The notes beneath the pieces are model-generated. The model worked only from the letters and a program-made list of their open reading frames with translations, searched no databases and had not been told where the DNA came from. A stretch of DNA of 64,000 nt from a virus: positions 1-64,000 of IMG/VR virus record IMGVR_UViG_3300010412_000005; one strand, given 5' to 3'. Below, in pieces: positions 13,051 to 58,136 of the stretch. The first letter of the stretch is position 1. Each line of letters opens with the position of its first letter. The position numbers were made by a program, and so were the translations under genes.

Positions 13051-13294
13051 CGAGGTTCGCAAGCTCTTCACAGACAGTAAGTTCGACCTGCTCCTGCGGT
13101 GCATCCAGGCAGAGTGTGATTGGCTCACTTGGAATGCCCAAGTAAACAAGGTCGAGTTCCTCTACAAAGAGGAATTTGACCGTGAAGCTATGGCAGGATT
13201 CAAAAAAGCATCTCGACTTGCTGTTGCACTTGAGGTTCTAAGAGAGTATGCAGACGATAAGAAACAGCTCTGCACACTCTCTATTGAACCATGA
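13010..13294 (+). CDS. small helical protein between portal and scaffold
   Basis: usual position for podovirus-type head modules; ATGA overlap downstream. Confidence 0.7.
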   Translation: MDVNLIEISSPQRNEVRKLFTDSKFDLLLRCIQAECDWLTWNAQVNKVEFLYKEEFDREAMAGFKKASRLAVALEVLREYADDKKQLCTLSIEP

Positions 13295-22841: not shown

Positions 22842-24057
22842 GCCAATCTACGCAGGCGACGTCAATACACTCGCTCAGCTTGATCTGCAGCGATCTATTG
22901 CACAGTCAAAAGCAACTCAGGAAGGCATTGCTGGTGCCAGTCGTGGAGTTGGAAATCTCCTCAGCCAAAAGCAGCAGGAGCAGTATGGAAAGCTCAAGGG
23001 TCGAGAGCTTGACATCCAGGAAGGTCAGCAAGAGCGAGAAGACAAGGAGCGCATGGAGCGCTACACGTTCGAGTCTGCTCAGCGTGCTGCTCAAGAAGGT
23101 TTGCTGGATGCTGACCAGCTCGAAAACATTGCCCCAAGCTTCAAAGATCCAACCCGTCAGGCAATCATAAAGGAAGAAGCAAATAGGCTTCGTGGGCTTG
23201 AAGAGACGATGGATGAGGAAGGTCCTCAGATTGCCAACAGACTGAACCAGTTCACTGGATACGAGCAAAGAACCCTGCAGAGAGCGCGTGAAGATTTGGC
23301 GAAAGCTGAGCAGGGATGGAAAGTCCCTGGAGTCGGCTGGGGTCCTGGGTCACAGGCTAACATTGAGGATGCTCAGAACCGCGTAGCGATGGCTGAGGCT
23401 GCAATCGCAGCCAAGGAAGCTCAGATCTACGAGGCGTATCCACAGTATGCAAACAGACTTCAGCTTGGCGAAGGTGGATACACCTATCTTCCTCGAAGCG
23501 GTAAAAGAAGGGGCATGGGATCTCAGGCTGATGTTCTTCCTCCAGCTGGTGGAGCTGCACAGGGTATAATGGTTGCCCCTCAAGAGCCTGTTGTTGGTGC
23601 GGATATCCTTCCAGAGGACCAGGGTTATGCTCCTCCTACTGGTCAACCAAGCGCAATGGCTCCTGATGTTCTTCCTGCTGCTGAATTTCCAAGGTCTGCG
23701 CGAGGAACAACTATGCCTCGGTCAGCTCCTCCGACAGGACCAGTTGCTGGCAGGGGTTCACGCAGAGCAATAGGGCCAATCCTTGGAACGCCTACAGGGC
23801 GAAATCCTCGTGGTGCGTATCGCCCATCTGCAGTTCAACAAGTCCAGCCGACGACTGAGACAGCAACAACTCCTAGCCAGGAAACGCCTAGCCAAGGACT
23901 ATTACCTGCTAACATCTCAGACCGGCTCGATCAGGAGACACTTAACGAGTTCTACTCGCGAATGGCTCAATTCCAGAGACAAGGTATGTCTTTAGATGAG
24001 GCAAGACGCCGCGCCGGTCTGTGGCTAAAGCAACAGATTGACGCGGAGGTTTTCTAA
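22825..24057 (+). CDS. internal virion (ejection) protein
   Basis: Q/E/A-rich helical N-half, Pro-rich C-half, between ejection-type genes. Confidence 0.65.
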   Translation: MAIAGKPIYAGDVNTLAQLDLQRSIAQSKATQEGIAGASRGVGNLLSQKQQEQYGKLKGRELDIQEGQQEREDKERMERYTFESAQRAAQEGLLDADQLENIAPSFKDPTRQAIIKEEANRLRGLEETMDEEGPQIANRLNQFTGYEQRTLQRAREDLAKAEQGWKVPGVGWGPGSQANIEDAQNRVAMAEAAIAAKEAQIYEAYPQYANRLQLGEGGYTYLPRSGKRRGMGSQADVLPPAGGAAQGIMVAPQEPVVGADILPEDQGYAPPTGQPSAMAPDVLPAAEFPRSARGTTMPRSAPPTGPVAGRGSRRAIGPILGTPTGRNPRGAYRPSAVQQVQPTTETATTPSQETPSQGLLPANISDRLDQETLNEFYSRMAQFQRQGMSLDEARRRAGLWLKQQIDAEVF

Positions 24058-27000: not shown

Positions 27001-30000
27001 TCGAAAAGCGGGTTGCCGGTTTGAGGAGCCAGCTCGCAGAAGCCGCCGCTGTTGCGCCTACGGCTGAGAATGCGCGGTCTATCCTGACCACCCTGGTGTC
27101 CAGGACCCAAAACAAGTTACGGCTCGCCAGAATCAATTCTCAGCGTTTGCAGGAGCAGCACGATTCCCTGATCGCTCAGGCTCAGGCAGCACTTGATGCA
27201 GTCCCAGTCGGTCCAGCAAGCCCAACCACCCTGGCTAAGATCGCTGATCTCAGGGCAAGAGCTGAGACTCTTGGCAAAAAGAAGATGGCTCAGGTCAAGA
27301 CCGTTGAGAGCCTTCAGGCAGAGATCAAGGAATACCAGCGCCAGATCGAGGACATCAAGAGGATGCCCAAGGATGCGCCCATTGATCGCGAAGCTATCAG
27401 ATCTCAGATCAAAGACCTTGAGGCTCGACGTCAACGTGTATCAGAAAAAATTCCAGGCAGGGCTGAGGCGATGGATACCCTGCGTAAAAGGTTGGTAGAC
27501 TTGGAGTTGCAGTATCGCAAGGCGTTCTTGGAAGAGGTAGATGAGCGATCTGGTGGCAAAGTCTCCGAGTTCATGCAGAAGCGAGAGGCTGCTGGTGCTG
27601 AATACAGAGGAACATCATGGGCCATTGCAAACATCAGGGCCGCATTGGCGACATACGGATACCAGTTCGATGTCCAGCCATACGTGAGGAAGTTCGTAGA
27701 AAGGGAAGTCACTGATCCTGTCACTGGTCAAAAGGCAGTCATTAAGGAATACACCAGACGTATCGGTGGGACAGTAGGGGCGGTAATTGCTCAGAGACTA
27801 AGGGCTGGCGATGTTGAGGTTGCGGAACAGTTTGAGGCTAATGACTTTCTGACTATCAGACCAGTTCCAAACTTCTTCGTAAGAGAAGGTGAGGAGATCA
27901 ACTGGCCAGAAGCCGCCAAGTCTTTCCTGACGCTGATCGAGAAACCAACAGAAGCCCAGAAGAAATCTGCTGAAGGCGTTACGAGTTCAGACTCATTCGT
28001 TGCGTGGTTTAAGGAGAACATCGTTCCAGCCGTCATGGGGATTCAGGAGCGTTTGTCGAAGGCTGAAGCTGCTTTGACTGAACTGCAAAACAGCGTGTCT
28101 GACTTCGGGCTGACCAAGCAGTCGACGTGGTCCTATGATGCGAAGTCGAACGAATTCAAGTGGGGCATTGACTCGTTCCTGGCACCAGATCCGAACTACG
28201 TGGTCTGGATGTCTGAGATCAACTCACGAAGCCCTCTCGGTTCTGACCCTTCCAGCACCGTTGTAATCCCTCCTGGAGCAGGGCAGAGCTTGCCGCTTGA
28301 GCCAGACTTCGAAGGTGAACAGGTCAAGATTCCGCATGTTCACCCTGGAGATCGCCCTCAAACCAAAGAGGGTATGTTCAACCCTGGCAAAGGAGACGTC
28401 ACGTGGCAGATCGCATACTACACCCAGGATGATGATGGCAGGATGGGTGACACGATTGTGGTCTTGCAGCGCAGCCATCATAGGGTGTTTCACATCGTCA
28501 CGATTAAGGATGGTGTTGTCGTTGAAGATGTTAGGGCTCCTCAAGACAAGACAACTGGACGGACAAACTACAAGACAGCTGTCCAGGCTGCTCAGTCAAA
28601 ACTCAAGGGTAAGATTCAGTCTGCGTTCTGGACAGCTGAGCGAGGTTTCCAGATCCCAACTGTCTACAGCCTGTCTCCTCTCACTGATGGAACAGTTCCT
28701 TCAAACGTGAGTGGGCAGGGAAGCGTTCTTTGGACTCCTGCCGTAGAGCTGGACAGTATCGAGGATGCTCTCTATCGAGCTGCTGCAGCTGGTGAACTCC
28801 GACCAGGGATGAGCAAGGATGCCATCTCTAAGGCAGTAACCAAGGCTGTTGCTGGCATAAGCCCTTGGCACTATAGCGCTTACAAAAAGAGCTTCCAGGC
28901 TCAGCGCTATTGGAGATCTCAAGCCGAGAACATCATTCGCAACGCTACACAAGACGCGATCATGGCGACACAGATCGCCAGTTCTGGTCGAAAGCCAAAC
29001 ACTGAAGTTCTCGCACGGGCATTTGGAATCGCAAACCCAACATTCACGCCGAAGAAGATGCCTAAGCTTGAACTGGCTCAAGCTGAATACATCAGAAGGG
29101 CTCTGAGTGTTCCACGTGGAACAACGGACTTCCAGGAGACAGTCGAAGTTGAATCGACGTTTGAAGTCAAATACCCGCGCACGACGCAAACCAGAGAGAA
29201 CGGTTCTCGCGTTGTGTCAATCGAGCTGGATCATCCGACAGCACCAGCCGTTTTGGGGACTCCGTATTTCAGAAGGACTACGCCGCTGGTAGCCAAGCAG
29301 GAAGACTCAATCATCATTACCAAAGATGGCAGAGCATACGGATGGTTCGTGTTTACTGAAGCCACCACAGCTGCTGAGAAGAACAACATCTTCGCAACAA
29401 TCGACGGAAATCCATCTGCCACTGCATACACTGAGACAGTCACTAAGCGTGCACCGCGCATGAAAATGGACCCCGCTGACAGGGTGGAGCACGCTGAGGA
29501 TTATCTGCAATCTCGTGTTGTTCAACGACTTGAGCAGCCAACGAACAATCCTACCACCCAGCAGCTTGCAGCTGAAGCCGCAGCTACGGTCGACAAGCTT
29601 AGAGAAACGAAGACTGGCAGAGATATTCTGCAGAACTTCCTTGAGGATGCGCGTGATGTCCGACTTGGCAGAAGCCGGTTCGTCAACAACATGCTGCGGC
29701 TCTTCAACACTGCTTCATTCAGTGAGCAATACGCCGTTCAGGTTGATGACAGCACAGTCGAGCGATACGTGGATGTCTCCATTCCAAACGTGATGGAGAA
29801 GACCAGGGTTCTGGTCGAAGCAAACACCACCAACGAAGAGGCGTATGCTGCTGCTGTTTCCCAGTTGGTAGACCAGATGTCGATGGCTGTGTCTCCACAG
29901 ATGCTCAGGATATTCGGAGTCAGTGGAGCTACCTACAGCGAGATGTCCTACGAGCCAAACCTGGACGGCTACGTCAGGCTCAAGAAGGGCATGGAGGCTC

Positions 30001-33000
30001 CTGAGAACCGCGTTCGAATCAAGGAGCTGAACGACATTGCTGACCTGGGCAAGAACCACCCAAGCTACAAGCTGGTCAAGGGCAGGTTCACGATGGGTGT
30101 TGGGTATGAGCGCATGGCTGAATTGCTTGCGGAGGTTGGGCTTAACCCAAGCCTGCTGACAAAGCCGAAGCCGGGTCAGAACGTGCAGCTTGAGTTCGTT
30201 GGGGACGATGGCGTGACCAAGATCATGCACACCATCGCGACTCCGAAGACCAATGAGCGTGTGCTGCGTAGGAAGACGAAGGCTGGCAAGGTTGTCGAGA
30301 CGAAGATTCCGTTCGAGTCTGTGGTGGTTGGAAAAATGTTCGACTACTACGTCGAACGCATCCAGCAGATCTACAAGCGCATCCAGGATCATCAGGTAGC
30401 CAGGGCAAACATGAAGGCTCTGGTTGCAAGAAGGCTGTTCGCTGAGGCTTTCAGGCTTCCAATCATCGAAGGTCCGTTTAAGGGTGTTCTCCTTCAGGCC
30501 AAGAACCAGCAGAGGAATCCAAGACATCAGATGCTTGGGCGAGCCAAGGCTGTCATCGGGGCAGAGCAGGCTGCTGCTGGAAAGAAAGCTGAGGAGGAAT
30601 ACCTGCCTGAAATTGATACGAGCGGCTTCTACGAGTATCGACTCGTCAGCAATAAGATCTGGACGAAGGCCAAGTTCGAGACCGACGAAAACGTCAAGTT
30701 CCAGGCGTCATTCATTCCGCTCGGAACTGTTTTGCTTCAGGTTGAAAGCGAAGGCGAGTTCCACAATCGTCAGACAGTCAGCACCAACGCAATGGAGGCT
30801 GAGGAGGTTGAGCTTGAGCGAAAGAAAGGCGAGACTGACGAGGAATATGAAGAGCGAGTTGAGATGGCAAAGCTCAAGTCTCGCTTTGATGTTAAGGCTG
30901 TAGAAGCTTTCTTGGCTGTAGAGAAACAGCCTAAGACAGGACGACACTTTGCACGCATAGTCATTCGCGGTGGAACTAAAGCAAAGCCTGAATGGGAAAC
31001 TATCTACCGCGTAGACCTTCAGAAGCTTCAGAATAGCGGACTTGCAAAACCATTTACCAAAGAAGAAACCAAGAGTGGGAAGACTGATGGCTGGTATATC
31101 AACAGGCATGCAGTCAACAACTCTGCATGGTGGGAAGTCGCTAAGCCTGATAGGCGTGACTATCTGAGTCCTGAAGACTTTGCAAACTACTATCCACACA
31201 AGCTCGGGCTTCTTCCTGGAGATGTGCTTGCACAGGCTCGGTGGGTTTCGATGGTGTCTGAAGGAAGTGATGCAGAGAGAATCATCAATGAGCGCGTCAG
31301 TGGATTGAGCAGCACATCGGTAGGGACGTTCAATCAGAAGATCACTGAAGCTGCACCAGATACATTCTCTGCTACCCGTTTCAACATGGAAGATGTTGAG
31401 GGTGGAAACTTGATGGATTGGCTTGAGGAGAATCTAAGCAAGTCAGCCAAAGGTATAGAGATCCTCAAGCGTATTCACTCCATTGACCCTCTTGCTGAGT
31501 TGACACCTGAAGGTAGAGATCCTTGGCAAATCGTCAGGGATGAGATCCTTGTCATAAACGGAATTCCTATTGGCAAGGATGCTACTAAGACTCAGGAACA
31601 GCTTGCTCTTGCTGACAAGATTGAGAAATCTCTGAATCGGGTTCATGAGTCTCGCGTGTCTGGTGGTGTTCAATTCCGTGGCGGTGGTCGCAGGACACGC
31701 ATAAGCGATGTCAATCCAGACGTCATCAACAAGCCTGCTATAGGCAAGGCTGCAATTCGCGAGCTGATCAACACTGAGAACAACGGATTAAGCCCAAGAG
31801 CGAAGCGGCTTGCCAACCTGATGCTCGATGTGCTTCCTGATACGATCCTTGAAGATCTTACGTTTGTGATCACTCCTGGATACGAGATCGGCAACGACGC
31901 GACAGTCGAATACACCGGGTCATTTAGCCATGCTTGGAGAATCGCAAGGTTCGTCAGCACATCTGGAAGTGTTCACACAGCTGCTGAGGAACTCGCGCAT
32001 GCTGCTGCCATGTTCCTTCCTGCTGAGCACAAGGGAGCCGTTGAGGAATATCGGCAAATTGAGATACGTCAGGCTCTTGAGAACCCAACCACTCCTGAGA
32101 TCGTAAAGACTTTCCTGAAGGACATGGAGGCTAACGGTGGTGCGTTCACCAGTGAAGACTTCATGCACCGCAGGGGTAATCAATACCTGCTGCCTTACTA
32201 CCACCTGATCAACACAGATGAGTTCTTTGCCCATAACATGGTTGCTGCCACTGATCGTAAAGGCAGGACAAACCTGCAGAAGGCAGTTGATAAAGCAAAG
32301 AGCATCATCTCTGGGTTCCTGAAGGGAATCAAAAAGGCGATGCGCATGATGAACGCGCAGCGCGATTCTTACTTCGACGAACTGATCGCCAAGTTCGAAG
32401 CCGGTGACTTTGAGGTTACAGCCAACGGTGGGTTCTTGCATGAGATCAATAAGGACGTAGACATGGGCGCTGTTGCCGTCGCGTGGACTGCTGGTCAGGT
32501 CAAGCGCCAAGCAGAGACTATCCCAGTTTCTACTGCGGGTGGTCCTGCTTTGGCGTTTACCAAGGCGCAGCGAGGGACTGTAATCGCGGCTGGAAATGTA
32601 GAACCATATACCATCCTTTCCGCCCTTACTGCCAAAAGAGAGGCACAAGGAAGAAAGCTCAGCGCAAAGGCAAAGCAGATCTGTCTGATCGACAACTTCC
32701 AAGAAGTGATCGAAACCGTCCGTAATGTGTTCAAGGTTCCGATTGGACAGTTCAAAGACACGATCACCAATCTTCCAGCTGTATGGCTGAAGGAACAAAC
32801 AATCTTAGCTGCAAGCTCGTCCGTGAACTTCATACGCGAGCGAATGAACAAGGTTAAGAAAGCCAGGGATACATGGATGGCTAAGCTAACGTCTCCTAAG
32901 TTCATTCAGGACATGAGGAAGTTTGCTAAGCTGAAGATCGAGGTTCTTGGCCAAGAGGCAATCGCTGCAAGACTCGAAGAGCGCATTAAATCTCATCTTG

Positions 33001-36000
33001 CTTTGCTGCGTGCGCGTCTTGCAGATCCGAATCTTGATCCCAACAGCCCATTGGCAGCCAATGCAGCTCGCGAAATAGATCTTTATGAATCATATATGAC
33101 CTACTCTATGGGCATCGCCCAGAAGGTAGAGCAGATGATCACAGCATTGTCGCTGACTGAGCAGGGCAACGAGCTGCTGCAGAATCCTTGGGGAAATCTT
33201 GATCCTCGCGCAGTAACGAAAGCATATAAAGACACTGCTCCTCCTCCAGAACAGCTTCAGGTTGGCAATGCAATCATAGAGGCAGCTGCATACTTCATAG
33301 CAACTGAACCAGCTATAAGGCAGTTGATGGCAGCTGCTGTGTATCAGGCTGACCCTGAAGTAGCAAACTTGACTGATCAGTTGACGATGGACATGACCAA
33401 CATGATGGACGAGTTGGTCAAAGCTCCAGCTGGGTTACGTGCAGTCGGCAAGGGCGACGACTTGGTTAACAAGTTCATGCGTCTGATCAGAGCCACGCAG
33501 AAGTCGACTGCTGCCGAGACGAAGGCAAAGACTGTTATGCGAGCGCAGCAGATTAAGCTTCGTAAAGTGATCAACAGGGCTCAGATGCTTGATGAAGCAT
33601 ACGAGTTCTACCAGGAGCTGATGGCAGATCCTGATTGGATCGCATACGAAGGTGAGATTGCCGATCTTGCTGGTGCTCTTCACATTCCAGAGAACTGGAA
33701 ACATGTCGGTAGCGATCCTGTGTCAGGCATTGTGAAGATGCCGCTTCCGATGACTGCTCCGAAGGTAACGACCAGTGGAACTGAGAACGCATACCATGTT
33801 GTAAAACTGCACGACAACTTGGCCAGATGGGAGGCTGAGCGCGTAAAGGTTCAGGAGTCCATTGATCAGATGACTCAGTGGCTAGTAAACAATGGCAACG
33901 ATGAAACTCTTGATGCCAAGTATTTCAAGTCGATGATTAAGTATGGGCAGATGCTGCTCGACTCATCCTTGGTAAACGACATACAAGGCAATCACCAGGG
34001 TGGGTTCAACTTCATCAACGCGATCTTCAATAAGTGGACCGCAATGTGGGAAGGTATTGCTCGTTCGGCTCCAGTGCGTGCAATTCAGAATTCGCGTATT
34101 GCTGTCAGAGCGTGGAGCGATTCGATGTTGCTCATGAACAAGTGGTATCAGAAGTGGGGTGATCGGATTGCAACACTTCTGCATAAAGCCACAGACTCTC
34201 ACAGCGACATCGTTGATATCAGTGACAGAAACAAGTCTGTCTACGACTGGTTCAATGAGGTAGGCAGAGAATTGTTCCACCTTGCCAACGAGGGATACGA
34301 TCCGAAAGCAGGAGATACTCTTCCTGATGCTCAAATAGAGATCACGCAGGACGATATCAACTGCCTAAAGGAAATGGTTACTGCAGCAGACGAGGCATAC
34401 GAGATTGATGTCACGCGAGGGCGAGAAGTAATTCCTTCAAGGACCGTAACTGACGAGTTCATTCCTGGAATGCCGTATCAACGTCGTGCTATGAAGCTTG
34501 TTCAATACATGCTTCCACGCACGTTCAACAAAGCTGCAATGGACTTTACTAAGAAGTGGCTCATTGAGCATGCTGGTTACGACGCTGATCGTAATAACTA
34601 CAGTTTCAGGGATATGGCTGGAGCTACTGAGCTTCTCGATCAGCACTGGTATCTGTTGAAGGCGTTCCTCAGCGACAGAGACCTTGGTTTCACTGACAAG
34701 AAGAGCCCACTGGAAGTAGGTGCATACCCGGCATTGCTTGAAAAGATCAGAAATGAAGAGATAACCAACGTAGAAGACTTCCTGGCTGCGCTCGATACGT
34801 TCAGCATCACTGAAGAAAACTTCGATGCACGACAGCAGTTCTGGAAGGACTTCTTCCATCTGCAGAAGGGAATCTACAATAAGGCTGTTACTGACAAATC
34901 GTCAGAGACGGATTCACAGCGTAAAGGGGTTTACATTCCATTCGAGCAGGAGAACTCATTCACGCGTGGTCGCGGTCAAAGGATCGCGCCGTATGCATGG
35001 TATAATCACGGATTCCACAGCACGGCACAGACAATGTCGTTCATGCTGAATGGATCTTCCCACTATCTGAACTGGGTAAGCAGATCAGTAGAGGACTCTA
35101 TCCTTGTATTGAAGGACATGCAGGACGATTACCAGAAACGCATTGATGCGTTGGAAGGAAAGAGAGAGCCGAGTAAGGAGACAAGGAAGCGTAGGCTGAT
35201 TGAGGAAACCAAAGCGAATCGTCAGGCGATGCGCCTGAACGAGGAGCGAATTAAGCTTGAGGATATCGACAGCACTATCAAAGCGCTAAGAGACTTCAGA
35301 ACTGAACTTCAGAAGGTATTCGCCTCTGAAGGTAAGCTGCTTGAAGAAGAGACGCTGCAGTGGAACAGGTTCTTTGGCCTGTATATGGGTGGTGCTATCT
35401 CAAGCTTCCGCACTGGCATTCAGAACATGCTGCAGTCAGCAATCGGTTACTCGTCTTGGAGGTTGCAGCGTCTGCGTGGTGGAATCTTCAGTGTGTGGCC
35501 ACAGCATGCGTTTAGGCTGACCTGGGATCTTGCACAGATGGCACCATACTCAGCTATCCGTGCAATCTACGATGCTGCTCCATTCATTGGGAAGGTGCAT
35601 TACATCAAAGCTCTCAAGGAAATGGGCATGCTGTTCAGCGTGTCGAACTATCAGAAGTATGGTCTGGCTAACATCCCTCGTCAGGTAACGCTCACGTTGA
35701 ATGAGTTGTTCTCTGACATGGTTCAAGACCTTGCTGATGGAGCGTGGAAGCGAGGAAGGATTTACAGAGAACTCGCAGAGCGCGGACTTAACAACCCGTT
35801 CAACACGCGCTACCACCTTGAGTCGGTTGCGGAGTCGTTCACAAGCCTTGGAAGGATTACATACAAGGAGACTGACAAGCCTGTTGCTGCAGAAGGTCCT
35901 GTTGATTGGGTGTGGAAACAGATGTGGAACGTGCTCAAGACTACCGGCAAGGGTATGCTTGGAGCTGTTGATATCGGCATGGCGCTTACGATAAGGCCAT

Positions 36001-37541
36001 TCCTTCCTCGCGCTGGTGACATGATGGCTAATCAGGTTGCAGCTGAGACAGTGTTCTCAGCTATGCACGCAGTAGAAAGCAGCCTTCGGCACAACTACCT
36101 GAGAGCTAAGGATCGTGGTGCTGATCCTCGCATCGTTGGAACAATTCTTCCAACTGATGTGCTGCCGCGTTGGTTCAGGCTTCCGCGCAACAATCTGTCG
36201 GCGCTGTCTGATCTGAAGAACTGGTTCCAAGGTGCTGCCGTTGATCTCAAGGGCGCAATCAATGACTTCTATGATCGCCTTGATGCTGCCGGTGATGATC
36301 CGAAAGCTCTTGGTGAGGTTCGGTTCCTTGATCATGAGCAGATCTGGAATCTTGCTCAGCAGCATCTTGAGGATGTTAACGTGGCAACGCCCGCCAACCG
36401 TCCAGCCATCGCAAAACGGAACACGATCAACCGTATTCTGTTCGCACTCAAAGGATGGAGATGGAACATGTTCAGCAAGATCATGGACATGATGGGTGGT
36501 GCCATGATGAAGCATGAGAGCGTGGCGCTAAGAGCATGGGAGAAGTTTGGAAATATGTATTACATCCTATCCGCAGCAGCCATCGGTGGTCTCGCTGGGT
36601 ATTGGTTGTTGGAGACGCTGACAAGGGCGATCTACCTTGCGCTATTCGGAGAGATCCGAAGCGTCAGAAAGCTTGAGGATGTGTCTGCTAAGCCAACCGA
36701 AGTTGCTGTCGGAATGGCATCCATCGTTCCGTTCCTCGATACCGCTGTGAACCTCACGTTCAACACGCAGCCTTCCAAGGCAAGATTCAGTCCTGGAAGT
36801 CTGGTCGACAGCATGATGCTTCAGGTCATGAACTACGTTGCTGGTGCATACAACAGCAAGGATCTGACTTACGGTGTCGACCGCGCTGTCGTGACGTTAC
36901 AGCCGACAATCGGCAAGCTTGTGATGAACAGGATGCCGGGTGCTACCGGCAAGATCGAGAACTGGAATGCCAGCAGGCTCCTGATCAGGCATGGCGAAGA
37001 TTCGTGGCTCAGGGAGTCAAGGTTCGGTGGTCAGATGTCTGGAATGTTCGTGACTCCATACACGCCAATCGCTGACCGCATGGTGAACGCAGCCATGCAG
37101 AACGATATCGGAAGGGTCCAGGAAGAATACATGGACGGCGTGACTCAGATGGTGATGAACGAGAACATCCCATACGAGGAAGCCCAGCGTCGTATGCGTC
37201 AGATGTTCACCAGTCGCAATCCATACGACCGCGCATACAAGCGCAGGCTGACATCTATGGAAAGGGCTCAGGTCCTCAACAAGATGGACATGGACGACAG
37301 GGACAGAGTCCAAGCTGTTGAGCGCAAGTTTGAAGCAGCAGCCAACGCCATCGGCGCGAACGTGAACTTCGAAAAGCAGGAGCGTCTGTTCAAGGCTGGA
37401 AAGACAGCAGTATCGCGGTTGCAGGCCATTCGAAAGCAGAGACGTGCAATGCTCATGAGCAACTCTGCAGCTCGCAGGGCGAGCATAAACATCATGGATC
37501 GCAGTCGTGGACTGTTGACTCGTGGACGAGTCTTACTATGA
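24057..37541 (+). CDS. giant internal virion / polyvalent-type protein (4,494 aa)
   Basis: YDPF N-terminus, Gly-rich hydrophobic helices, EGLEE motif, coiled coil, degenerate zincin motif EELAH...DEFFA, helical C-terminal region. Confidence 0.8.
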   Translation: MPESYDPFSDLQDPNVAVSEPPLPPAPGRPAAPQEQQFDRKQFVVDVLEDIERSPEYQAYKRNRKEAALKEELRQQRQRTADFGESVLGNLLHLKSGDLQLAKIGAIFSGWANRKLGMPEAAAVADRKADEYRQEQKEIRSAIDGLNMGAVARTAGQFGESFIVSSPTLVVPGTAATAAARAGLGVAGASMVGLGAGAGVGGGISGISVYDDARDQYIAQGFSEEEASEMAKYPGWVSGIGTAAITALFGRTGVERSAFLKLPKDKVIGVLRQVFNQAGLEGLEEGADEIYQKITGYLTYHPDMPVEQAISEVGAAFGLGMAMGGGVEILGQIVNMSPPEIKALNEREFPRPQERPKTRKEAEGSPILPASTPKQGQTKPTVKSVQSNEEAARQLWGAMKPEERLKVIGPQGAAAPLPLEAINWEDLTEEEQLKVYDQFNLSVEPVGGRIPATAPAMPTAEDLAENERLTKAMRMSLIGSPEHEAAWAAKEQLKAKYGGHDLTKIGTEVPVAEAAAPAEPTAPGDQAWATRLSPSDSLAVRSAEPIDPTTITSVTKDTNDAGQTVYAIIYDNGKYIGYDDNPAWELHPLFGKKITPAAPAAPAEPGALANHADQVTVPQGIPASENTAYRSLETNPQITVEEFAGMDNEQRANHARSIGLNATGLSYAVGHNATVTENDILLLKTAYDQARARGQQLADESSKRTLTDAELNELSQLGQVENAMAEAIGAATDTGSAGFTLRKLPNYRPNFRGLINEPKRQSNQPEVKAAKNRAVTEVTAQTSDIPTTLATNLPDDQEQLAREQVFKGLKPAEFSPAQAKIYKGRDRANYDKRVLELRALAFIAPTLARGETLVFPDTATLGKIKKNHPGIYRLLQDEISRLTTPPRADTPSQEAAASTPTQDLPKNEDQSNPLSLKEMSKSAVEHFISTLNLLKQAAESKVRSAKHVKKQKSVLAKQGKTLKEFKKVQALHAEALQEVSRIEKRVAGLRSQLAEAAAVAPTAENARSILTTLVSRTQNKLRLARINSQRLQEQHDSLIAQAQAALDAVPVGPASPTTLAKIADLRARAETLGKKKMAQVKTVESLQAEIKEYQRQIEDIKRMPKDAPIDREAIRSQIKDLEARRQRVSEKIPGRAEAMDTLRKRLVDLELQYRKAFLEEVDERSGGKVSEFMQKREAAGAEYRGTSWAIANIRAALATYGYQFDVQPYVRKFVEREVTDPVTGQKAVIKEYTRRIGGTVGAVIAQRLRAGDVEVAEQFEANDFLTIRPVPNFFVREGEEINWPEAAKSFLTLIEKPTEAQKKSAEGVTSSDSFVAWFKENIVPAVMGIQERLSKAEAALTELQNSVSDFGLTKQSTWSYDAKSNEFKWGIDSFLAPDPNYVVWMSEINSRSPLGSDPSSTVVIPPGAGQSLPLEPDFEGEQVKIPHVHPGDRPQTKEGMFNPGKGDVTWQIAYYTQDDDGRMGDTIVVLQRSHHRVFHIVTIKDGVVVEDVRAPQDKTTGRTNYKTAVQAAQSKLKGKIQSAFWTAERGFQIPTVYSLSPLTDGTVPSNVSGQGSVLWTPAVELDSIEDALYRAAAAGELRPGMSKDAISKAVTKAVAGISPWHYSAYKKSFQAQRYWRSQAENIIRNATQDAIMATQIASSGRKPNTEVLARAFGIANPTFTPKKMPKLELAQAEYIRRALSVPRGTTDFQETVEVESTFEVKYPRTTQTRENGSRVVSIELDHPTAPAVLGTPYFRRTTPLVAKQEDSIIITKDGRAYGWFVFTEATTAAEKNNIFATIDGNPSATAYTETVTKRAPRMKMDPADRVEHAEDYLQSRVVQRLEQPTNNPTTQQLAAEAAATVDKLRETKTGRDILQNFLEDARDVRLGRSRFVNNMLRLFNTASFSEQYAVQVDDSTVERYVDVSIPNVMEKTRVLVEANTTNEEAYAAAVSQLVDQMSMAVSPQMLRIFGVSGATYSEMSYEPNLDGYVRLKKGMEAPENRVRIKELNDIADLGKNHPSYKLVKGRFTMGVGYERMAELLAEVGLNPSLLTKPKPGQNVQLEFVGDDGVTKIMHTIATPKTNERVLRRKTKAGKVVETKIPFESVVVGKMFDYYVERIQQIYKRIQDHQVARANMKALVARRLFAEAFRLPIIEGPFKGVLLQAKNQQRNPRHQMLGRAKAVIGAEQAAAGKKAEEEYLPEIDTSGFYEYRLVSNKIWTKAKFETDENVKFQASFIPLGTVLLQVESEGEFHNRQTVSTNAMEAEEVELERKKGETDEEYEERVEMAKLKSRFDVKAVEAFLAVEKQPKTGRHFARIVIRGGTKAKPEWETIYRVDLQKLQNSGLAKPFTKEETKSGKTDGWYINRHAVNNSAWWEVAKPDRRDYLSPEDFANYYPHKLGLLPGDVLAQARWVSMVSEGSDAERIINERVSGLSSTSVGTFNQKITEAAPDTFSATRFNMEDVEGGNLMDWLEENLSKSAKGIEILKRIHSIDPLAELTPEGRDPWQIVRDEILVINGIPIGKDATKTQEQLALADKIEKSLNRVHESRVSGGVQFRGGGRRTRISDVNPDVINKPAIGKAAIRELINTENNGLSPRAKRLANLMLDVLPDTILEDLTFVITPGYEIGNDATVEYTGSFSHAWRIARFVSTSGSVHTAAEELAHAAAMFLPAEHKGAVEEYRQIEIRQALENPTTPEIVKTFLKDMEANGGAFTSEDFMHRRGNQYLLPYYHLINTDEFFAHNMVAATDRKGRTNLQKAVDKAKSIISGFLKGIKKAMRMMNAQRDSYFDELIAKFEAGDFEVTANGGFLHEINKDVDMGAVAVAWTAGQVKRQAETIPVSTAGGPALAFTKAQRGTVIAAGNVEPYTILSALTAKREAQGRKLSAKAKQICLIDNFQEVIETVRNVFKVPIGQFKDTITNLPAVWLKEQTILAASSSVNFIRERMNKVKKARDTWMAKLTSPKFIQDMRKFAKLKIEVLGQEAIAARLEERIKSHLALLRARLADPNLDPNSPLAANAAREIDLYESYMTYSMGIAQKVEQMITALSLTEQGNELLQNPWGNLDPRAVTKAYKDTAPPPEQLQVGNAIIEAAAYFIATEPAIRQLMAAAVYQADPEVANLTDQLTMDMTNMMDELVKAPAGLRAVGKGDDLVNKFMRLIRATQKSTAAETKAKTVMRAQQIKLRKVINRAQMLDEAYEFYQELMADPDWIAYEGEIADLAGALHIPENWKHVGSDPVSGIVKMPLPMTAPKVTTSGTENAYHVVKLHDNLARWEAERVKVQESIDQMTQWLVNNGNDETLDAKYFKSMIKYGQMLLDSSLVNDIQGNHQGGFNFINAIFNKWTAMWEGIARSAPVRAIQNSRIAVRAWSDSMLLMNKWYQKWGDRIATLLHKATDSHSDIVDISDRNKSVYDWFNEVGRELFHLANEGYDPKAGDTLPDAQIEITQDDINCLKEMVTAADEAYEIDVTRGREVIPSRTVTDEFIPGMPYQRRAMKLVQYMLPRTFNKAAMDFTKKWLIEHAGYDADRNNYSFRDMAGATELLDQHWYLLKAFLSDRDLGFTDKKSPLEVGAYPALLEKIRNEEITNVEDFLAALDTFSITEENFDARQQFWKDFFHLQKGIYNKAVTDKSSETDSQRKGVYIPFEQENSFTRGRGQRIAPYAWYNHGFHSTAQTMSFMLNGSSHYLNWVSRSVEDSILVLKDMQDDYQKRIDALEGKREPSKETRKRRLIEETKANRQAMRLNEERIKLEDIDSTIKALRDFRTELQKVFASEGKLLEEETLQWNRFFGLYMGGAISSFRTGIQNMLQSAIGYSSWRLQRLRGGIFSVWPQHAFRLTWDLAQMAPYSAIRAIYDAAPFIGKVHYIKALKEMGMLFSVSNYQKYGLANIPRQVTLTLNELFSDMVQDLADGAWKRGRIYRELAERGLNNPFNTRYHLESVAESFTSLGRITYKETDKPVAAEGPVDWVWKQMWNVLKTTGKGMLGAVDIGMALTIRPFLPRAGDMMANQVAAETVFSAMHAVESSLRHNYLRAKDRGADPRIVGTILPTDVLPRWFRLPRNNLSALSDLKNWFQGAAVDLKGAINDFYDRLDAAGDDPKALGEVRFLDHEQIWNLAQQHLEDVNVATPANRPAIAKRNTINRILFALKGWRWNMFSKIMDMMGGAMMKHESVALRAWEKFGNMYYILSAAAIGGLAGYWLLETLTRAIYLALFGEIRSVRKLEDVSAKPTEVAVGMASIVPFLDTAVNLTFNTQPSKARFSPGSLVDSMMLQVMNYVAGAYNSKDLTYGVDRAVVTLQPTIGKLVMNRMPGATGKIENWNASRLLIRHGEDSWLRESRFGGQMSGMFVTPYTPIADRMVNAAMQNDIGRVQEEYMDGVTQMVMNENIPYEEAQRRMRQMFTSRNPYDRAYKRRLTSMERAQVLNKMDMDDRDRVQAVERKFEAAANAIGANVNFEKQERLFKAGKTAVSRLQAIRKQRRAMLMSNSAARRASINIMDRSRGLLTRGRVLL

Positions 37542-45014: not shown

Positions 45015-45603
45015 TTTGGGGTTGTGGGTTTGGAGTTGGTTCGACAGCTACCTGATTCGGTTCGCTGTTCCGAAGCGCTTCTGGGTGTGTCGGTCTGCCG
45101 TGCATCTCTCTGGCATTTGGCCCAGCAAAGACGGCTGGCTTCAGCAGATCTGGGTTAACGTCATCGCCCTTGGTCGGGCGTGGACGCAGGTCGATAGACT
45201 CAGAGTCCACCCCAAAGGCAGGCTTGGCAGCGCTTGGAGCAGGACTAGGGGCAGGGCGTGGCGCTGTCCTGGGCGTAGGAGGCGTTTGGGGTTGGGGTGG
45301 TGTCTTGGCACCCGACAAACTCCTGACGGCTCCTTGGGGCATCTTAGGCTCAGGAATGGCCTGTTGCTCCTCAGCCTTGGATTTGGGCCTGATCCTCCCC
45401 TTACCGATATACATGCACTCGTAGTCATTCGCCTTGAACGTGAACGACATTGTGCCTGGAACGCTGCTTGGGGTTCTACCCCAGCACAGCAGCTCGCTGC
45501 CTTGGGTTGATATTACGATGCCAGTGGTTCCAATGTCTTGGCCCTTAACTACTTGCACGCAATCGTTTGGCTCGATGATGATAGCGCCGTCGATCTCTTT
45601 CAT
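44827..45603 (-). CDS. KOW/SH3-like domain plus Pro-rich tail protein
   Basis: PNDCVQVVKGQDIGTTGIV KOW-like motif; ATGA overlap with recombinase. Confidence 0.6.
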   Translation of the reverse strand: MKEIDGAIIIEPNDCVQVVKGQDIGTTGIVISTQGSELLCWGRTPSSVPGTMSFTFKANDYECMYIGKGRIRPKSKAEEQQAIPEPKMPQGAVRSLSGAKTPPQPQTPPTPRTAPRPAPSPAPSAAKPAFGVDSESIDLRPRPTKGDDVNPDLLKPAVFAGPNAREMHGRPTHPEALRNSEPNQVAVEPTPNPQPQNERPESKQEAPKKKVQRKNIFRKGARKGNKRRASLGIPMEGTSGVPGEGALRQASPPPETQD

Positions 45604-46592
45604 AGGTTCTTTCTGAGTGTGAGCATTGCTGTCTTTGCTGAAGCCGCTGTCGGCACAAAGTAATGGTCGAGTGTCTGCCTATCCTTGATCCCAACGATTG
45701 AGCGAACCGCTTCGCTGTCTGCTCCGTTCGTTATCAGTCTGGTAATCAACGTCCTACGGAATGTGTGGAACGTCTTGTCGACGATCTTGCACTTCTTGCG
45801 GAGCCATCGGTTGAACTCAAGGACTGCCTGATACCCTCCGCGCTTGTCGCTGGTCATTGCCTGGAGGACAGGGCAGAGATACCCACTGTCGTCTGGAGGG
45901 TTGAACTTTAGGTAGACTAGCAGCTTGGCCAAGTCAGACCCAGACAACCAAGGTATGCACACAGACATTCCACTGCGCTTGGTCTTACGTGGGACCAGCG
46001 TGATGACCTGCTCTTGCCAGTCAATGTTCTCGTAGCGCAGGTTGGCAACATCAACCATCCGAAGTCCTGTGTTCCAGCCGACAATCGCTGCGTAGTTCCA
46101 GATCGTGCCCTTCGATTTCTTGACGATCAGATCGTATTCATCCTCAGTGAACGTCTCTCTCTTGAGGGGCTTAGATCCAATGCGAACCCTGACGTCATCC
46201 CAAGGGTTCCCATCTATTGAGCCCATCTGTAACAACCACGCAAAGAACTGCTTAACGTGTATTCGGTAGCTGTCTATGGTGTTGGGAGACAGGGCTCTAT
46301 CTTTGAGAGCCTCTATCCAAGTCTCAAGCAGCTTCGCTGTGATGGTCTGTGTGTCTAGCAAGTCGGTGAATGCGATGAAGTCTGTTAGAGCTTTGCGGTC
46401 TTGCCTGATGGTTTCGTAGGTCAGCTTTCTCTTGGCTCGTGTCTCCAGATATTGCTCAGCTGCCTGAATGATGGCCTGCTGATTCAGGTTCACCTTGGCC
46501 GATGGGCTTCGCTTTTCGAGGGCGACCGATAGTCTTGGGAGCTTTTCCGCTTTCTTCGTAGTCGGATCTGATTCTAATTTGTTGGGTGACAT
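45600..46592 (-). CDS. tyrosine recombinase / integrase (start uncertain)
   Basis: LSPNTI core-binding motif, TGLR, RKTK, HTFRR, terminal HY. Confidence 0.88.
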   Translation of the reverse strand: MSPNKLESDPTTKKAEKLPRLSVALEKRSPSAKVNLNQQAIIQAAEQYLETRAKRKLTYETIRQDRKALTDFIAFTDLLDTQTITAKLLETWIEALKDRALSPNTIDSYRIHVKQFFAWLLQMGSIDGNPWDDVRVRIGSKPLKRETFTEDEYDLIVKKSKGTIWNYAAIVGWNTGLRMVDVANLRYENIDWQEQVITLVPRKTKRSGMSVCIPWLSGSDLAKLLVYLKFNPPDDSGYLCPVLQAMTSDKRGGYQAVLEFNRWLRKKCKIVDKTFHTFRRTLITRLITNGADSEAVRSIVGIKDRQTLDHYFVPTAASAKTAMLTLRKNL

Positions 46593-46896
46593 AACCTTGT
46601 GTAAGGCCACGCCCAATAGTCTTCAGTCCATCTCGACTCCAGGCGCGGCGTAGATAGAACAGTTTCTTGCGCGGTCGGAGAAGGTCCAACCCGCAACCAT
46701 CAGCAAATCTGAGAGCGTCACCAACAGCCACGTGCTCCCAGGTTGGCTGCAGCGCAATCCAGTTGGTGACCTGATACGATAGCCCAGCGTCCTTAGCTAT
46801 CTCGCGGAGTGACTTAGCCTTGGCCTTTCTGCGTGCACAGAGTCTGGCTATGCAGGGTGGAATTTGGTCGAGATGTTGAAGCAGGTTGCTCTTCAT
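46456..46896 (-). CDS. HTH DNA-binding protein
   Basis: SLREIAKDAGLSYQVTNWI helix-turn-helix. Confidence 0.65.
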   Translation of the reverse strand: MKSNLLQHLDQIPPCIARLCARRKAKAKSLREIAKDAGLSYQVTNWIALQPTWEHVAVGDALRFADGCGLDLLRPRKKLFYLRRAWSRDGLKTIGRGLTQGYVTQQIRIRSDYEESGKAPKTIGRPRKAKPIGQGEPESAGHHSGS

Positions 46897-55133: not shown

Positions 55134-55818
55134 TAGGTCTATCTTTCTTTTCTGCCGCTTGGTTTATTACTTGTTCTGAGTGCTGCTTGTATAGCTGGCA
55201 GATCTTGACGGCAGTATCTACCTTGCACTCCATACTTATGCGTATGCTTCCACCTTTGCATACAACTGTGATGTGCTCTCCGTTGGGTAGCCGGTCGTAG
55301 AACATGTATCTACCCATTGAGGATGTAGTTGTCGTAATTCCGCATTCAGCTTTCAATAGATCAATCTCTTGAAGTGAAGCGCGGTGATTGCTTTCAGCTG
55401 ACAGCATGCGCGTAACGCAGTTGTCAAACTGCTGCAGATACTCAGGCAGGAACCGTTTACGAATTGCATCTGCGATTCGTATTATAGGCTTCATCCTGCT
55501 TGATGTTATGCTCCTTGGAACATCACTGATGTCTGGAGCAAATCCAACTTCGAGTTCTTCAGACGTTGGATACTCTCCATATATCCTAACATGTGTCGGC
55601 TTGTTCTCCATCACCAGGATGCAGATAACCGGGTTGACTCCTTTGATCGCAGCGTTGAGCTGGATCTTGCACGCTATAGGATAGTGATACTCATGATAGC
55701 GTGGATTGATTGGCAGCACTGTGCCGTTAATGATTGGTGCAAGGTCTTTGCACAGTTGCTGTGTTGCTTCTATTAGTATTGTAGCTTTTGATCTCCTTTC
55801 ATCGAGTGACTCATTCAT
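55126..55818 (-). CDS. hypothetical protein
   Basis: same-strand array, ATGA overlap. Confidence 0.65.
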   Translation of the reverse strand: MNESLDERRSKATILIEATQQLCKDLAPIINGTVLPINPRYHEYHYPIACKIQLNAAIKGVNPVICILVMENKPTHVRIYGEYPTSEELEVGFAPDISDVPRSITSSRMKPIIRIADAIRKRFLPEYLQQFDNCVTRMLSAESNHRASLQEIDLLKAECGITTTTSSMGRYMFYDRLPNGEHITVVCKGGSIRISMECKVDTAVKICQLYKQHSEQVINQAAEKKDRPNG

Positions 55819-56078
55819 GCAAACTTCTTTCCAAGTGTTCGCTTGAGCTTTGGCATGATTTGTCCAGCGCAGTTTCTGACCACAAGCTCAGCGGTTTTGC
55901 TTTCGCCATCACGATACGACTTCCTCTTTATCTCCGCTTTCTTCAAGCGATAGTTAACCTGACTCTCAGACAGGTTCGTTCGTGCAGATATAGCTCTGCT
56001 ATGCCATCCAATGTCACCAAGGAATGCGCAGAACAGGTCGTTATCATCCATGAACGTGATCTTGGTCTTCTTCATCAT
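55815..56078 (-). CDS. small HTH protein
   Basis: GWHSRAISARTNLSESQVNYRL helix-turn-helix. Confidence 0.65.
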   Translation of the reverse strand: MMKKTKITFMDDNDLFCAFLGDIGWHSRAISARTNLSESQVNYRLKKAEIKRKSYRDGESKTAELVVRNCAGQIMPKLKRTLGKKFA

Positions 56079-56251
56079 AGCGTCTTGCCTTTCGATGGTG
56101 CTGCGTTCACGACTGCACGAATGGCAGCCTCTGCTCCACGCTCGACACGATCAAGTGTCGCCTTGCTAACCTGTGTCCAGGTATGAGCACGCGTTTGCTT
56201 GGCGTATTCGAGCACTCGCTTCTTAACTGCAGCTCGATTGATTAGGCTCAT
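56075..56251 (-). CDS. putative histone-fold protein (58 aa), not in ORF track
   Basis: MSLINRAAVKKRVLEYAKQTRAHTWTQVSKATLDRVERGAEAAIRAVVNAAPSKGKTL*; ATGA overlaps at both ends. Confidence 0.7.
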   Translation of the reverse strand: MSLINRAAVKKRVLEYAKQTRAHTWTQVSKATLDRVERGAEAAIRAVVNAAPSKGKTL

Positions 56252-56508
56252 CGACTCCTCATTCGGTTGGCCAGCGTCATTCCCCTGGTGAGAACGTGCA
56301 GGTTCATGCCACAGCTGGGACAGAAGTTCGCAATGACAGTCTGTTCAGGCTCGTCACCCTGAACAATCTCTTTGCTTCTCCTTCCACCGCCACGCGTTGT
56401 CATGCCTCCATGCACGCGTGACGTGTGCATAGCTAGAGCCTGCTTGGCTGACTTGATGTTGGTCTTGTGGAACTTCTTACCGCATTTACCGCATGTAGTT
56501 GTTGTCAT
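56248..56508 (-). CDS. C2H2-like zinc-finger protein
   Basis: CGKCGKKF...LAMHTSRVH plus FCPSCG; AAGGA upstream. Confidence 0.7.
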   Translation of the reverse strand: MTTTTCGKCGKKFHKTNIKSAKQALAMHTSRVHGGMTTRGGGRRSKEIVQGDEPEQTVIANFCPSCGMNLHVLTRGMTLANRMRSR

Positions 56509-56563: not shown

Positions 56564-57487
56564 CTAATCGGATTCGATGTCGTCGTTGATGAACTGGCGA
56601 GACGGGCGAATGGTAATCATCTTGTCGATCTCACCCTTGAGATCAGAGAACTGAGATGCCATGCGCTCTCTCATTCCGTCATCACCACGCATCATTTCAC
56701 TGAACGCTTTGGGATCGTCCACGTCTGACATGACAGACTCAGCCTTCTTAACAAGCTCTGCCAAGTCTTTATCATTCATGATGTTCCTTGCATTGAACGT
56801 CTCAAGGAACTCTCTGATGTTTTCAATAGTCGAAGACTTGAAGGTCTTCGCTTTCTCGCCTGGAGCGACGGTCAGTCGCTCGACAGCATGGTCGATGAGT
56901 TTGGAGAATGACATGCGTAGTGTCACAAGGATCTTCTCCTGCGCATCCAACCATATCTGCTCACTCTTCTTCTTGGCTGCGAGGTAGAGTTCTTTCGGAA
57001 GATTCTCAGGCACGCCAAACGAGACGGGTAGCCATGTGAACCCGAACTTAACCTCCATGATGTTCGCCTCTGGATAATCACCAGGGCTGTAGTAAGGACC
57101 AAGCTCCTGTCTGTCCAAGTATTCGATGGACTTGATGTCAGCGCACAGGTCAGGAACCATCACAGACTTTAGCGTCTGCTGGTCCTGTGTGATGCGTGAG
57201 TTGATGGAGTCATACTCGTTGAGTTTGACCATGAAAATGCCAACCTTGAAGAAGGATGGCATTGACCTGCTTTGGACCCAGGCTTTCGTCTCGTTCTGGA
57301 ACTGAACGATGCGGTCGTATTGCTTCGATGTAGTCAACCGCACAGTCTTTCGCAGGCGTTTGGCATTGACCTTGTCACGGTCTGCCTCCTCCTGTGATAC
57401 CTTGACTGTCTTGCGGTTTGACCAGCGCTGCACACTGAAGTTCAGAGCGCAGCAATCCTTGAATAGTTCTACACTGAGTTGCTTCAT
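56564..57487 (-). CDS. DUF3150-like protein
   Basis: W...K, PSFF..G.F.V, Y...DYP, FKSSTIEN...F...F...NI.ND..L pattern. Confidence 0.6.
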   Translation of the reverse strand: MKQLSVELFKDCCALNFSVQRWSNRKTVKVSQEEADRDKVNAKRLRKTVRLTTSKQYDRIVQFQNETKAWVQSRSMPSFFKVGIFMVKLNEYDSINSRITQDQQTLKSVMVPDLCADIKSIEYLDRQELGPYYSPGDYPEANIMEVKFGFTWLPVSFGVPENLPKELYLAAKKKSEQIWLDAQEKILVTLRMSFSKLIDHAVERLTVAPGEKAKTFKSSTIENIREFLETFNARNIMNDKDLAELVKKAESVMSDVDDPKAFSEMMRGDDGMRERMASQFSDLKGEIDKMITIRPSRQFINDDIESD

Positions 57488-57747
57488 TCTTGCCTTGTTG
57501 ATTCGGCACGTTGCCGAGAGGTTATGTCTAAGACCCAGCCCATAGCCTTTATGACAGTCTCAAATGGAGCGTCACCAGGACCAGTAAGCCGCATCACTAC
57601 TCTATTCTTCTTATCGAACTGATACACTGTGTTTGATCGTGGAACACCGTAGACACCCATGTCTTTGAGAATACTGATCAACCCTTGCGTCCATGTGATC
57701 GCTCGATCCATTCCTTCTGGTGTGTTGATGTTCCATTCCTTCATCAT
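57484..57747 (-). CDS. hypothetical protein
   Basis: ATGA overlaps; W....I..LK..GV..VPRS...Y..DK. Confidence 0.65.
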   Translation of the reverse strand: MMKEWNINTPEGMDRAITWTQGLISILKDMGVYGVPRSNTVYQFDKKNRVVMRLTGPGDAPFETVIKAMGWVLDITSRQRAESTRQE

Positions 57748-58136
57748 ATAGTTCCTTCCTCTCCGAATGTTGGGCATGGATCTGCATCAGCCCGATGCCA
57801 TAGATGCAGACAGTTCTTGGCGATGTTCACATGCACCCGTGCCTTTGGCCAGATGCTGATCGCCATACGTTCGTCTCCAATGAAGACGCGTTTGATCTCC
57901 TTCATCTCTTGATAGGATGGGAGTCTGTCCTTGTGGCTCACCGATACGTGAATCCATTCCTGGCCATCGCAATACTCAATGAACTCCTCGTTGTCAGGGA
58001 TGGTGATGATAACTCGGAGCGGCAGTGTCTTGTGTTCAAAGACCTTGCCTCGTGGACCCCAGTCTCCGAGTTGTTTCCAATACTGCCGCATCTCTGGTGG
58101 TTGCGGCAGGAAACTCTCGACGCTCGTGTATATCAT
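57744..58136 (-). CDS. conserved phage hypothetical protein
   Basis: WIHVSVS...RLPSY.EM..IK..F...HVN...CLHLW pattern common in phages. Confidence 0.75.
   Translation of the reverse strand: MIYTSVESFLPQPPEMRQYWKQLGDWGPRGKVFEHKTLPLRVIITIPDNEEFIEYCDGQEWIHVSVSHKDRLPSYQEMKEIKRVFIGDERMAISIWPKARVHVNIAKNCLHLWHRADADPCPTFGEEGTI

Follow-up and report, generated by a model that had tools for sequence, protein, structure and literature searches.

A putative two-helix histone-fold protein family carried by phages and mobile elements

What is encoded by an open reading frame of 58 codons that overlaps the genes on both of its sides in the genome of an uncultured phage, and could so short a product still fold, pair and bind DNA as histones do? 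The window analysed here comprises positions 1-64,000 of the IMG/VR record IMGVR_UViG_3300010412_000005, which is 76,545 bp long, has direct terminal repeats and is rated 100% complete. The window has a GC content of 50.7% and 0 tRNA genes, and codes for a terminase large subunit, a virion structural protein, an integrase-like protein, an exonuclease and an ATPase. The 58-codon ORF sits among tightly packed minus-strand genes, in a long run to which the exonuclease and the ATPase also belong. The features at the locus are as follows.

56075-56251, minus strand: gene for a predicted two-helix (alpha3-less) histone-fold protein of 58 aa, stop codon included (ORF, family, selection, AlphaFold2 model)
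56255-56260, minus strand: Shine-Dalgarno sequence GAGGAG, 3 nt before the ATG and within the end of the upstream gene (read from the sequence)
56192-56236, minus strand: predicted helix alpha1, RAAVKKRVLEYAKQT, codons 6-20 (DSSP on the model; K/R10 kept in 96% of the family)
56165-56191, minus strand: predicted loop L1, RAHTWTQVS, codons 21-29 (family consensus R.HKFTRVS; Q27 replaces the family R27)
56102-56164, minus strand: predicted long helix alpha2, codons 30-50 (26 residues from S29 to G55, gap-free against the histone HTkC)
56078-56101, minus strand: predicted loop L2 and protein end, APSKGKTL, codons 51-58 (alpha3 absent)
56248-56508, minus strand: upstream neighbour, 86 aa, zinc-binding candidate (C6-x2-C9...H28-x4-H33, C63-x2-C66)
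55815-56078, minus strand: downstream neighbour, 87 aa, weak winged-HTH match (HTH_24)
56564-57487, minus strand: 307-aa gene two genes upstream, weakly similar to an ORF of viral contig L027 and to a DUF3150 protein of locus L032

A sequence-only reading of this stretch had placed a 58-aa ORF at these positions, and it is present there on the minus strand with the sequence given; the residue stretches quoted in that reading are correct, with residues 19-25 (QTRAHTW) skipped. Both of the 4-nt overlaps that it described also exist: the gene shares an ATGA with the upstream 86-aa gene (TGA of that gene, ATG of this one) and a second ATGA with the downstream 87-aa gene (TGA of this gene, ATG of that one). 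The ORF is a real gene and not a chance ORF, since it belongs to a family with at least 276 representatives and its differences from a 93%-identical relative, on the metagenome contig L040, are biased towards synonymous changes. Fourteen codons differ by synonymous changes only and four by non-synonymous ones, and 13 of the 19 base differences fall at third codon positions, showing that the gene is under purifying selection in comparison with this relative.

The size of the family became apparent when the representatives of 1.84 billion clusters (at 50% identity) were searched exhaustively with HMMER, which retrieved at least 276 of them at E<=1e-3, 14 of them at E<=1e-10; a word-indexed search returned three close relatives only, 84-97% identical. 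Most members are 57-85 aa long and follow the consensus LINR..VK...L..A...R.H.FTRVS...LD..E......I...V...PSKGKT[LI]. Positions L14, R21, V28, P52, S53, G55 and T57 are kept in at least 90% of members, with the L2 columns P52, S53, G55 and T57 at 91-98%. The proteins end almost directly after GKT[LI], with 0-1 further residues in 112 of 150 members and three or fewer in 134. The candidate DNA-contact columns of the two loops hold R27 in 87%, K56 in 74% and T57 in 95% of the family. The copy studied here carries Q27, K56 and T57 at these positions; its close relatives likewise have Gln at 27, and no basic residue at position 57 offsets the change. The core net charge of the 58-aa protein is +8, and the family median is +6.5.

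Curated collections do not describe this family. Searches of Pfam, PHROGs and NCBIfam with the 58-aa protein returned nothing usable, Pfam searched with 148 family members (E<=0.01) gave scattered chance matches and no consistent family, and no member was matched in PHROGs or NCBIfam. All of the source names of the family records read 'hypothetical protein'. Two longer members, P0033 and P0086 (104 and 119 aa), are matched by the family profile over two stretches of each, and one of them resembles a tandem doublet, in which a copy lacking L2 precedes a complete one. Fusions of this sort are typical of how histone folds evolve and are compatible with dimerisation.

The fold was predicted with AlphaFold2. 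With an alignment of 148 sequences the model reached a mean pLDDT of 93.7 and a pTM of 0.69, with a helix at residues 6-20, a loop at 21-29, a second helix at 30-50 and a tail at 51-58. This is the layout that had been read from the letters alone, namely a short helix, a TQVS loop, a long helix and a PSKGKTL end. With only four close sequences the pLDDT was 71.7 and the model had no Foldseek match, so that the deep-alignment model was used instead.

A Foldseek search of this model against the PDB gave nothing at E<=1e-3, as expected for a protein of only 58 residues. All of the 50 matches listed were histone-fold chains, at E 0.85 or worse, with TM scores over all 58 columns of 0.70 for HTkC and 0.69-0.70 for HBb. 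An alignment independent of Foldseek, run against 48,161 representative PDB chains, also placed histone-fold chains at each of ranks 1-16 (Z 4.3-5.8), including TAF4 (Z 5.8), HTkC (Z 5.1), HLp (Z 4.8) and HBb (Z 4.7), together with H3/CENP-A and giant-virus histones. The first non-histone fold appeared at rank 17 (Z 4.2, rmsd 5.2). For such a predicted model, Z values of 5-6 and Foldseek E values around 1 are weak in absolute terms, and it is the uniformity of the list that carries weight. A fold search of BFVD gave no significant match. A ribbon-helix-helix protein, with an N-terminal strand followed by two helices, was also considered; no such chain occurs among the 50 matches listed from the search of 48,161 chains, and this reading therefore gained no support.

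The family HMM, searched against all PDB sequences, matched a single entry at E<=10, chain 9f2c_A (HTkC), with E=3.2e-4 from alignment A2 and E=3e-5 (27.4 bits) from alignment A4. The A4 alignment to HTkC covers 30 columns without a gap, starting at RVS, passing along alpha2 and reaching the glycine of L2. Among named language-model clusters, the ten that score best are all of the histone clan (PF00808, PF09123); their scores of 0.85-0.88 serve as leads only. The profile search that the earlier reading had proposed against histone families succeeded in one part, the match to HTkC; the Pfam models PF00808 and PF09123 matched neither the 58-aa protein at E<=1 nor the six-frame translation of the genome at E<=10. 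Since the sequence profile, the predicted fold, the language-model neighbours and the covariation described below agree, the proposal of a histone-fold candidate is borne out: the model supports a histone-type fold of two helices in which alpha3 is absent, and the profile match places the family as a distant homolog of the alpha3-truncated histones.

Alpha3-truncated histones keep 3-4 residues of alpha3, and their alpha2 is shortened by 4-5 residues relative to nucleosomal histones (PMC11390915). Except for the phage category, they carry an RxTxxxxD motif, in which R and D structure L2 and T contacts DNA (PMC11390915). The family resembles them in its homology to HTkC and in the length of its alpha2, the stretch from S to G being 26 residues, as in HTkC. 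In contrast, the protein ends at KTL, so that the truncation of alpha3 is complete instead of leaving 3-4 residues. The motif is also incomplete: T57 is kept (95%), the clamp R is lost through a one-residue deletion relative to the GRKTL of HTkC, and the D is absent because alpha3 is absent.

HTkC, the crystallised face-to-face alpha3 histone of Thermococcus kodakarensis (9F2C; PMC11390915), is similar in size (58-59 aa) and aligns gap-free through the RVS of L1, the length of alpha2 and the G.KT[LI] of L2, the superposition on the predicted model giving Z 5.1 and an rmsd of 2.1 A over 52 residues at 23% identity. HTkC, which forms a torus-shaped tetramer, has a short alpha3 and the RxTxxxxD clamp, whereas family members end at KT[LI], lack the clamp R and D and have an L1 about five residues longer. 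Small basic alpha3-type folds are likewise found in HBb (Bd0055) of Bdellovibrio bacteriovorus (8CMP/8FVX/9F0E; Z 4.7, rmsd 2.2, 24% identity), a dimer that bends DNA (PMC11390915), and in HLp of Leptospira perolatii (9QT0; Z 4.8, rmsd 2.2). Both of them are cellular, abundant chromosomal proteins with an RKTxxxD motif and a C-terminal segment after L2, whereas members of the family come almost exclusively from phage contigs, match no Pfam family and stop at L2. The best score of all belongs to the histone-fold domain of TAF4 (1H3O; Z 5.8, rmsd 1.9, 49 aa), which is seen as alpha1-L1-alpha2 only and is a eukaryotic protein-interaction module pairing with TAF12. This resemblance is one of shape only, because the identity is 16% and there is no match at the sequence level.

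Among phage proteins, the 'phage histones' of Schwab (A0A2E7QIQ9, A0A516LIY4; PMC11390915) and the VTTHFP group of Liu (PMC13681535) are, as described there, also phage-encoded, of the alpha3 type and devoid of RxTxxxD. A0A516LIY4 (139 aa) is a weak structural match (TM 0.59, rmsd 2.0, 49 columns, 18% identity, E 3.3). By those descriptions both groups have a long C-terminal tetramerisation helix, whereas the 58-aa protein ends at L2, and their pattern K10/G17/R30/K49 does not fit the R21, R27, P52, S53, G55 and T57 of the family. Closer in kind are VHHHFP and BBVHFP, short histone-fold proteins of Caudoviricetes in the IMG/VR catalogue that are described as untested at the bench and as having no C-terminal tetramerisation helix (PMC13681535). 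VHHHFP is described as an alpha3 fold with a 7-residue flexible loop and conserved K8, K9, K47 and R48, and BBVHFP as having a C-terminal helix (PMC13681535). The K/R10-11 of the family could correspond to K8-K9 of VHHHFP as described; there is no conserved adjacent K-R pair near L2. These descriptions set the PSKGKT[LI]-ending family apart from VHHHFP and BBVHFP, and the family may overlap the Liu catalogue.

The manner in which the chains might pair was addressed by covariation. A set of 284 non-redundant members was aligned to the family HMM and analysed by MI-APC and mean-field DCA (Meff ~235), with the caveat that the sequences are related and several of the coupled columns are nearly invariant. 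Packing of alpha1 on the N-terminal half of alpha2 within one chain would account for 9-36, 17-25 and the strongest coupling of all, 13-32 (z 9.7). Also among the strongest were couplings from L1 to L2, namely 27-57 (z 6.0), 29-57, 28-55, 28-52 and 21-53, and two within alpha2, 35-47 (z 5.4) and 32-51, which join positions 12 and 19 residues apart on the same helix. Provided that residues 30-50 form one continuous helix, the L1-L2 couplings are impossible within a single chain, because the two loops cap opposite ends of a helix of ~30 A, and the couplings 35-47 and 32-51 are equally impossible there. The sum i+j is 80-86 for the L1-L2 and alpha2 couplings, and 74 for 21-53. This pattern supports an antiparallel alpha2/alpha2' pairing that would cross near residue 41 and set L1 beside the L2 of the partner, as in the histone handshake; a dimer built as an antiparallel four-helix bundle would leave much the same i+j pattern.

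Individual substitutions follow the same geometry. Positions 35 and 47 are oppositely charged in 46 sequences and never (0) carry charges of the same sign. R27 is also missing in six of the eight sequences without T57. In five of these six the basic residue has moved from 27 to 57 (R27 to Q, G or I; T57 to R or K); they are 32-50% identical to one another, and their nearest relatives, at 43-67% identity, are in the R27/T57 state, as are all three nearest relatives for four of the five. Since each swap sequence has R27/T57 nearest relatives, the exchange took place several times independently. In the nucleosome, the L1 arginine and the L2 threonine of the partner are neighbours in the L1L2 DNA-binding site. 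The 58-aa protein very probably pairs like a histone. A subgroup found in L008, L009, L011, L012 and L028 has GLTRVS in L1 and ends in GKTF followed by a 6-residue tail (QPYNII or MPYNIL); in it position 25 changes from F to L while position 58 changes from L to F (MI-APC rank 83 of 1485), possibly another L1/L2' compensation.

The best explanation, which we hold to be reasonably probable, is a minimal alpha1-L1-alpha2-L2 histone-fold dimer that binds DNA non-specifically and serves as a small architectural protein in the replication/recombination phase. According to this proposal, a histone-fold protein reduced to alpha1, L1, alpha2 and L2 would pair head-to-tail, with the alpha2 helices of two copies crossing antiparallel near residue 41 and the L1 of one chain adjoining the L2 of its partner. 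The dimer, with a predicted net charge of about +16, would contact DNA non-specifically through its paired loops (R27/S29 of the family with K54, K56 and T57) and also through the basic N-terminal end of alpha1 (N5, R6, K10, K11). Phage DNA or host DNA would be its target, and its role that of a small architectural protein during the replication or recombination phase of infection. That the 58-aa protein binds DNA is probable from its residues; the reading is supported by its charge of +8, by the family median of +6.5 and by neighbours from DNA metabolism. We infer the mode of binding (bending or coating), its timing and the target DNA as parts of this best explanation. The modest scores, the lack of a Pfam histone match, the absence of alpha3 and of the R..D clamp, and the uncompensated Q27 count against it. 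The most likely role is that of a small, non-specific, dimeric protein that binds and shapes DNA.

A bolder form of the proposal appears unlikely. It takes the protein as the smallest working histone, a handshake dimer without alpha3 or the R-D clamp, from a phage-only lineage used as the phages' own chromatin, with cellular copies only in PVC-group MAGs and probably on mobile elements. Such a protein could, for instance, coat replicating phage DNA against host nucleases or displace the nucleoid proteins of the host.

It is distinctly improbable that the histone fold is present and does not bind DNA, the protein being a protein-protein module, a decoy or poison subunit for an alpha3 histone or nucleoid protein of the host, or a bridge between phage proteins. 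Bridging of this kind has its counterpart in the TAF and NF-Y histone folds. The best structural match, the TAF4 domain, is indeed a protein-interaction module seen as alpha1-L1-alpha2 only, and the L1 arginine is missing from this copy. Moreover, the cellular genomes with family members are PVC-group MAGs, and 'bacterial dimer' histones are listed for Planctomycetota and Chlamydiota (PMC11390915). However, the protein is strongly basic (+8 in 58 aa), K/R10, K54, K56 and T57 are conserved as in DNA-binding histones, and the covariation is in keeping with a symmetric homodimer. A sample of 201 Planctomycetota genomes contained no PF09123 match, and there is no sign of a host partner, because 300 other sampled genomes of Verrucomicrobiota lack the family.

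Equally doubtful is the view that the protein is unrelated to histones and has come to look like them by convergence, as a generic basic hairpin of two helices, for instance a small nucleic-acid chaperone or antitoxin-like protein. Its appeal lies in the modest structural scores (Z 5.8 or less, Foldseek E 0.85 or worse), in the ease with which two-helix models match many things and in the failure of every curated histone HMM to detect the protein. However, convergence sits poorly with a family profile that reaches HTkC alone in the whole PDB, at E=3e-5 and gap-free from RVS to the L2 glycine, with histone-fold chains at all of the first 16 fold-search ranks, with ten best named language-model clusters that are all of the histone clan, and with L1-L2' and alpha2-alpha2' couplings that match the geometry of a histone dimer.

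From the neighbouring genes, a C2H2-like finger and an HTH protein, the earlier reading had proposed an early three-gene module that would coat phage DNA or remodel the host nucleoid. Both neighbours are only weakly typed: the 86-aa protein has a C-x2-C-x18-H-x4-H pattern plus a second CxxC and sub-threshold zinc-ribbon matches, and the 87-aa protein matches HTH_24 at E=0.0028 with 17.6 bits against a cut-off of 21.9. The module itself did not survive. The trio of zinc-finger, histone-fold and HTH genes is kept, with both ATGA overlaps, only in the near-identical L040, and no homolog of the zinc-finger or HTH neighbour lies beside family members in 26 other viral contigs. The L027 ORF that resembles the 307-aa protein lies near a family member.

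The least probable reading, a sequence-specific regulator of phage genes built on a histone-like helix-loop-helix dimer and acting with the adjacent zinc-finger and HTH proteins, could draw on the translational coupling to two putative DNA-binding proteins and on a weak HTH_31 match over residues 17-48 (E=0.054), but that match scores 14.3 bits against a cut-off of 27, the model shows two helices and not an HTH bundle, the two neighbours are not conserved with the family, and the highest conservation lies in the loops, which contact the DNA backbone in histones, and not in a recognition helix.

Across the family, the neighbours are mixed and mostly DNA-related. In viral contigs they include a MoxR-type ATPase with DUF2201/VWA, DUF932, GP88 and HNH proteins, and in MAG loci a WGR-ATP-dependent ligase, a beta-clamp-like protein, DUF3150 and a PD-(D/E)XK nuclease; no universal gene partner was found across the family loci examined. 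Since the neighbours vary and the trio is not conserved, the family appears to function alone, in regions given to replication, recombination and accessory genes.

The distribution of the family was followed with a degenerate DNA pattern, consisting of TRVS, 22 codons (N66) and PSKGKT. It matched 27 IMG/VR contigs of 5-139 kb, 26 of which code for true members, and only five places in a set of 185,579 prokaryote species with one genome apiece. The five lie in Phycisphaerae, Verrucomicrobiae and Verrucomicrobiota MAGs and one unclassified MAG, and the named family records are Chthoniobacter and Kiritimatiellae MAGs. In a Verrucomicrobiota sample the gene occurred in one of 301 genomes, which was already known to carry it. 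Among 50,697 GenBank phage genomes no match was obtained by megablast with the region, nor by tblastn with the 58-aa protein and two family members, and a search of viral contigs for related loci with the single 58-aa protein as query found none. The nearest language-model clusters are 89-100% viral. Because of this distribution over viral contigs, few MAGs and viral language-model clusters, the gene belongs to phages and mobile elements and not to the host chromosome. The few cellular records point to the PVC superphylum as the likely host range. One Verrucomicrobiota MAG holds two copies (L032, 2395-2691; L033, 5176-5376), each flanked by a WGR-ATP-dependent DNA ligase on one side and a beta-clamp-like protein of 495 aa on the other, with DUF3150 at one of the loci; this suggests a mobile element present twice, or two prophages related to each other.

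If the predicted fold is right, the family shows that two helices and two loops can suffice for a histone fold that keeps the residues and covariation pattern of a histone dimer. To our knowledge, bacterial and phage histones were recognised only in 2023-2025, and we know of no bench test of any phage alpha3-type histone-fold protein of the kinds compared here. The family is large and yet missing from Pfam, PHROGs, NCBIfam and the 50,697 deposited phage genomes; current annotation therefore overlooks it. With 58 residues, the protein is easy to produce and assay, and a co-structure with DNA would tell whether DNA binding of the histone type can do without alpha3 and the R-D clamp. Since phage alpha3-type histone-fold proteins have already been catalogued by computation, as described in PMC11390915 and PMC13681535, the family is a variant among them and not a new kind. 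What is new here is the covariation of the dimer, the PVC association, the lack of conservation of the neighbours and the Q27 of this copy.

Other genes of the window deserve mention. A single ORF of 4494 aa (24057-37541, plus strand) spans 13.5 kb, or ~18% of the 76.5-kb genome. It is one of the six largest structural-side ORFs, none of which has a Pfam match at E<=1e-3; the other five, near it, are at 10690-13050, 13291-15045, 15084-16784, 21879-22841 and 22825-24057. The integrase-like protein (45600-46616, minus strand; phrog_1, E=2.4e-39) is found in a genome with direct terminal repeats, and may be a marker of a temperate lifestyle or a recombinase with another role. Finally, four genes upstream of the histone-fold gene, a 130-aa protein (57744-58136, minus strand) has a clear match to DUF7694 (E=7.5e-23) and to phrog_7839.
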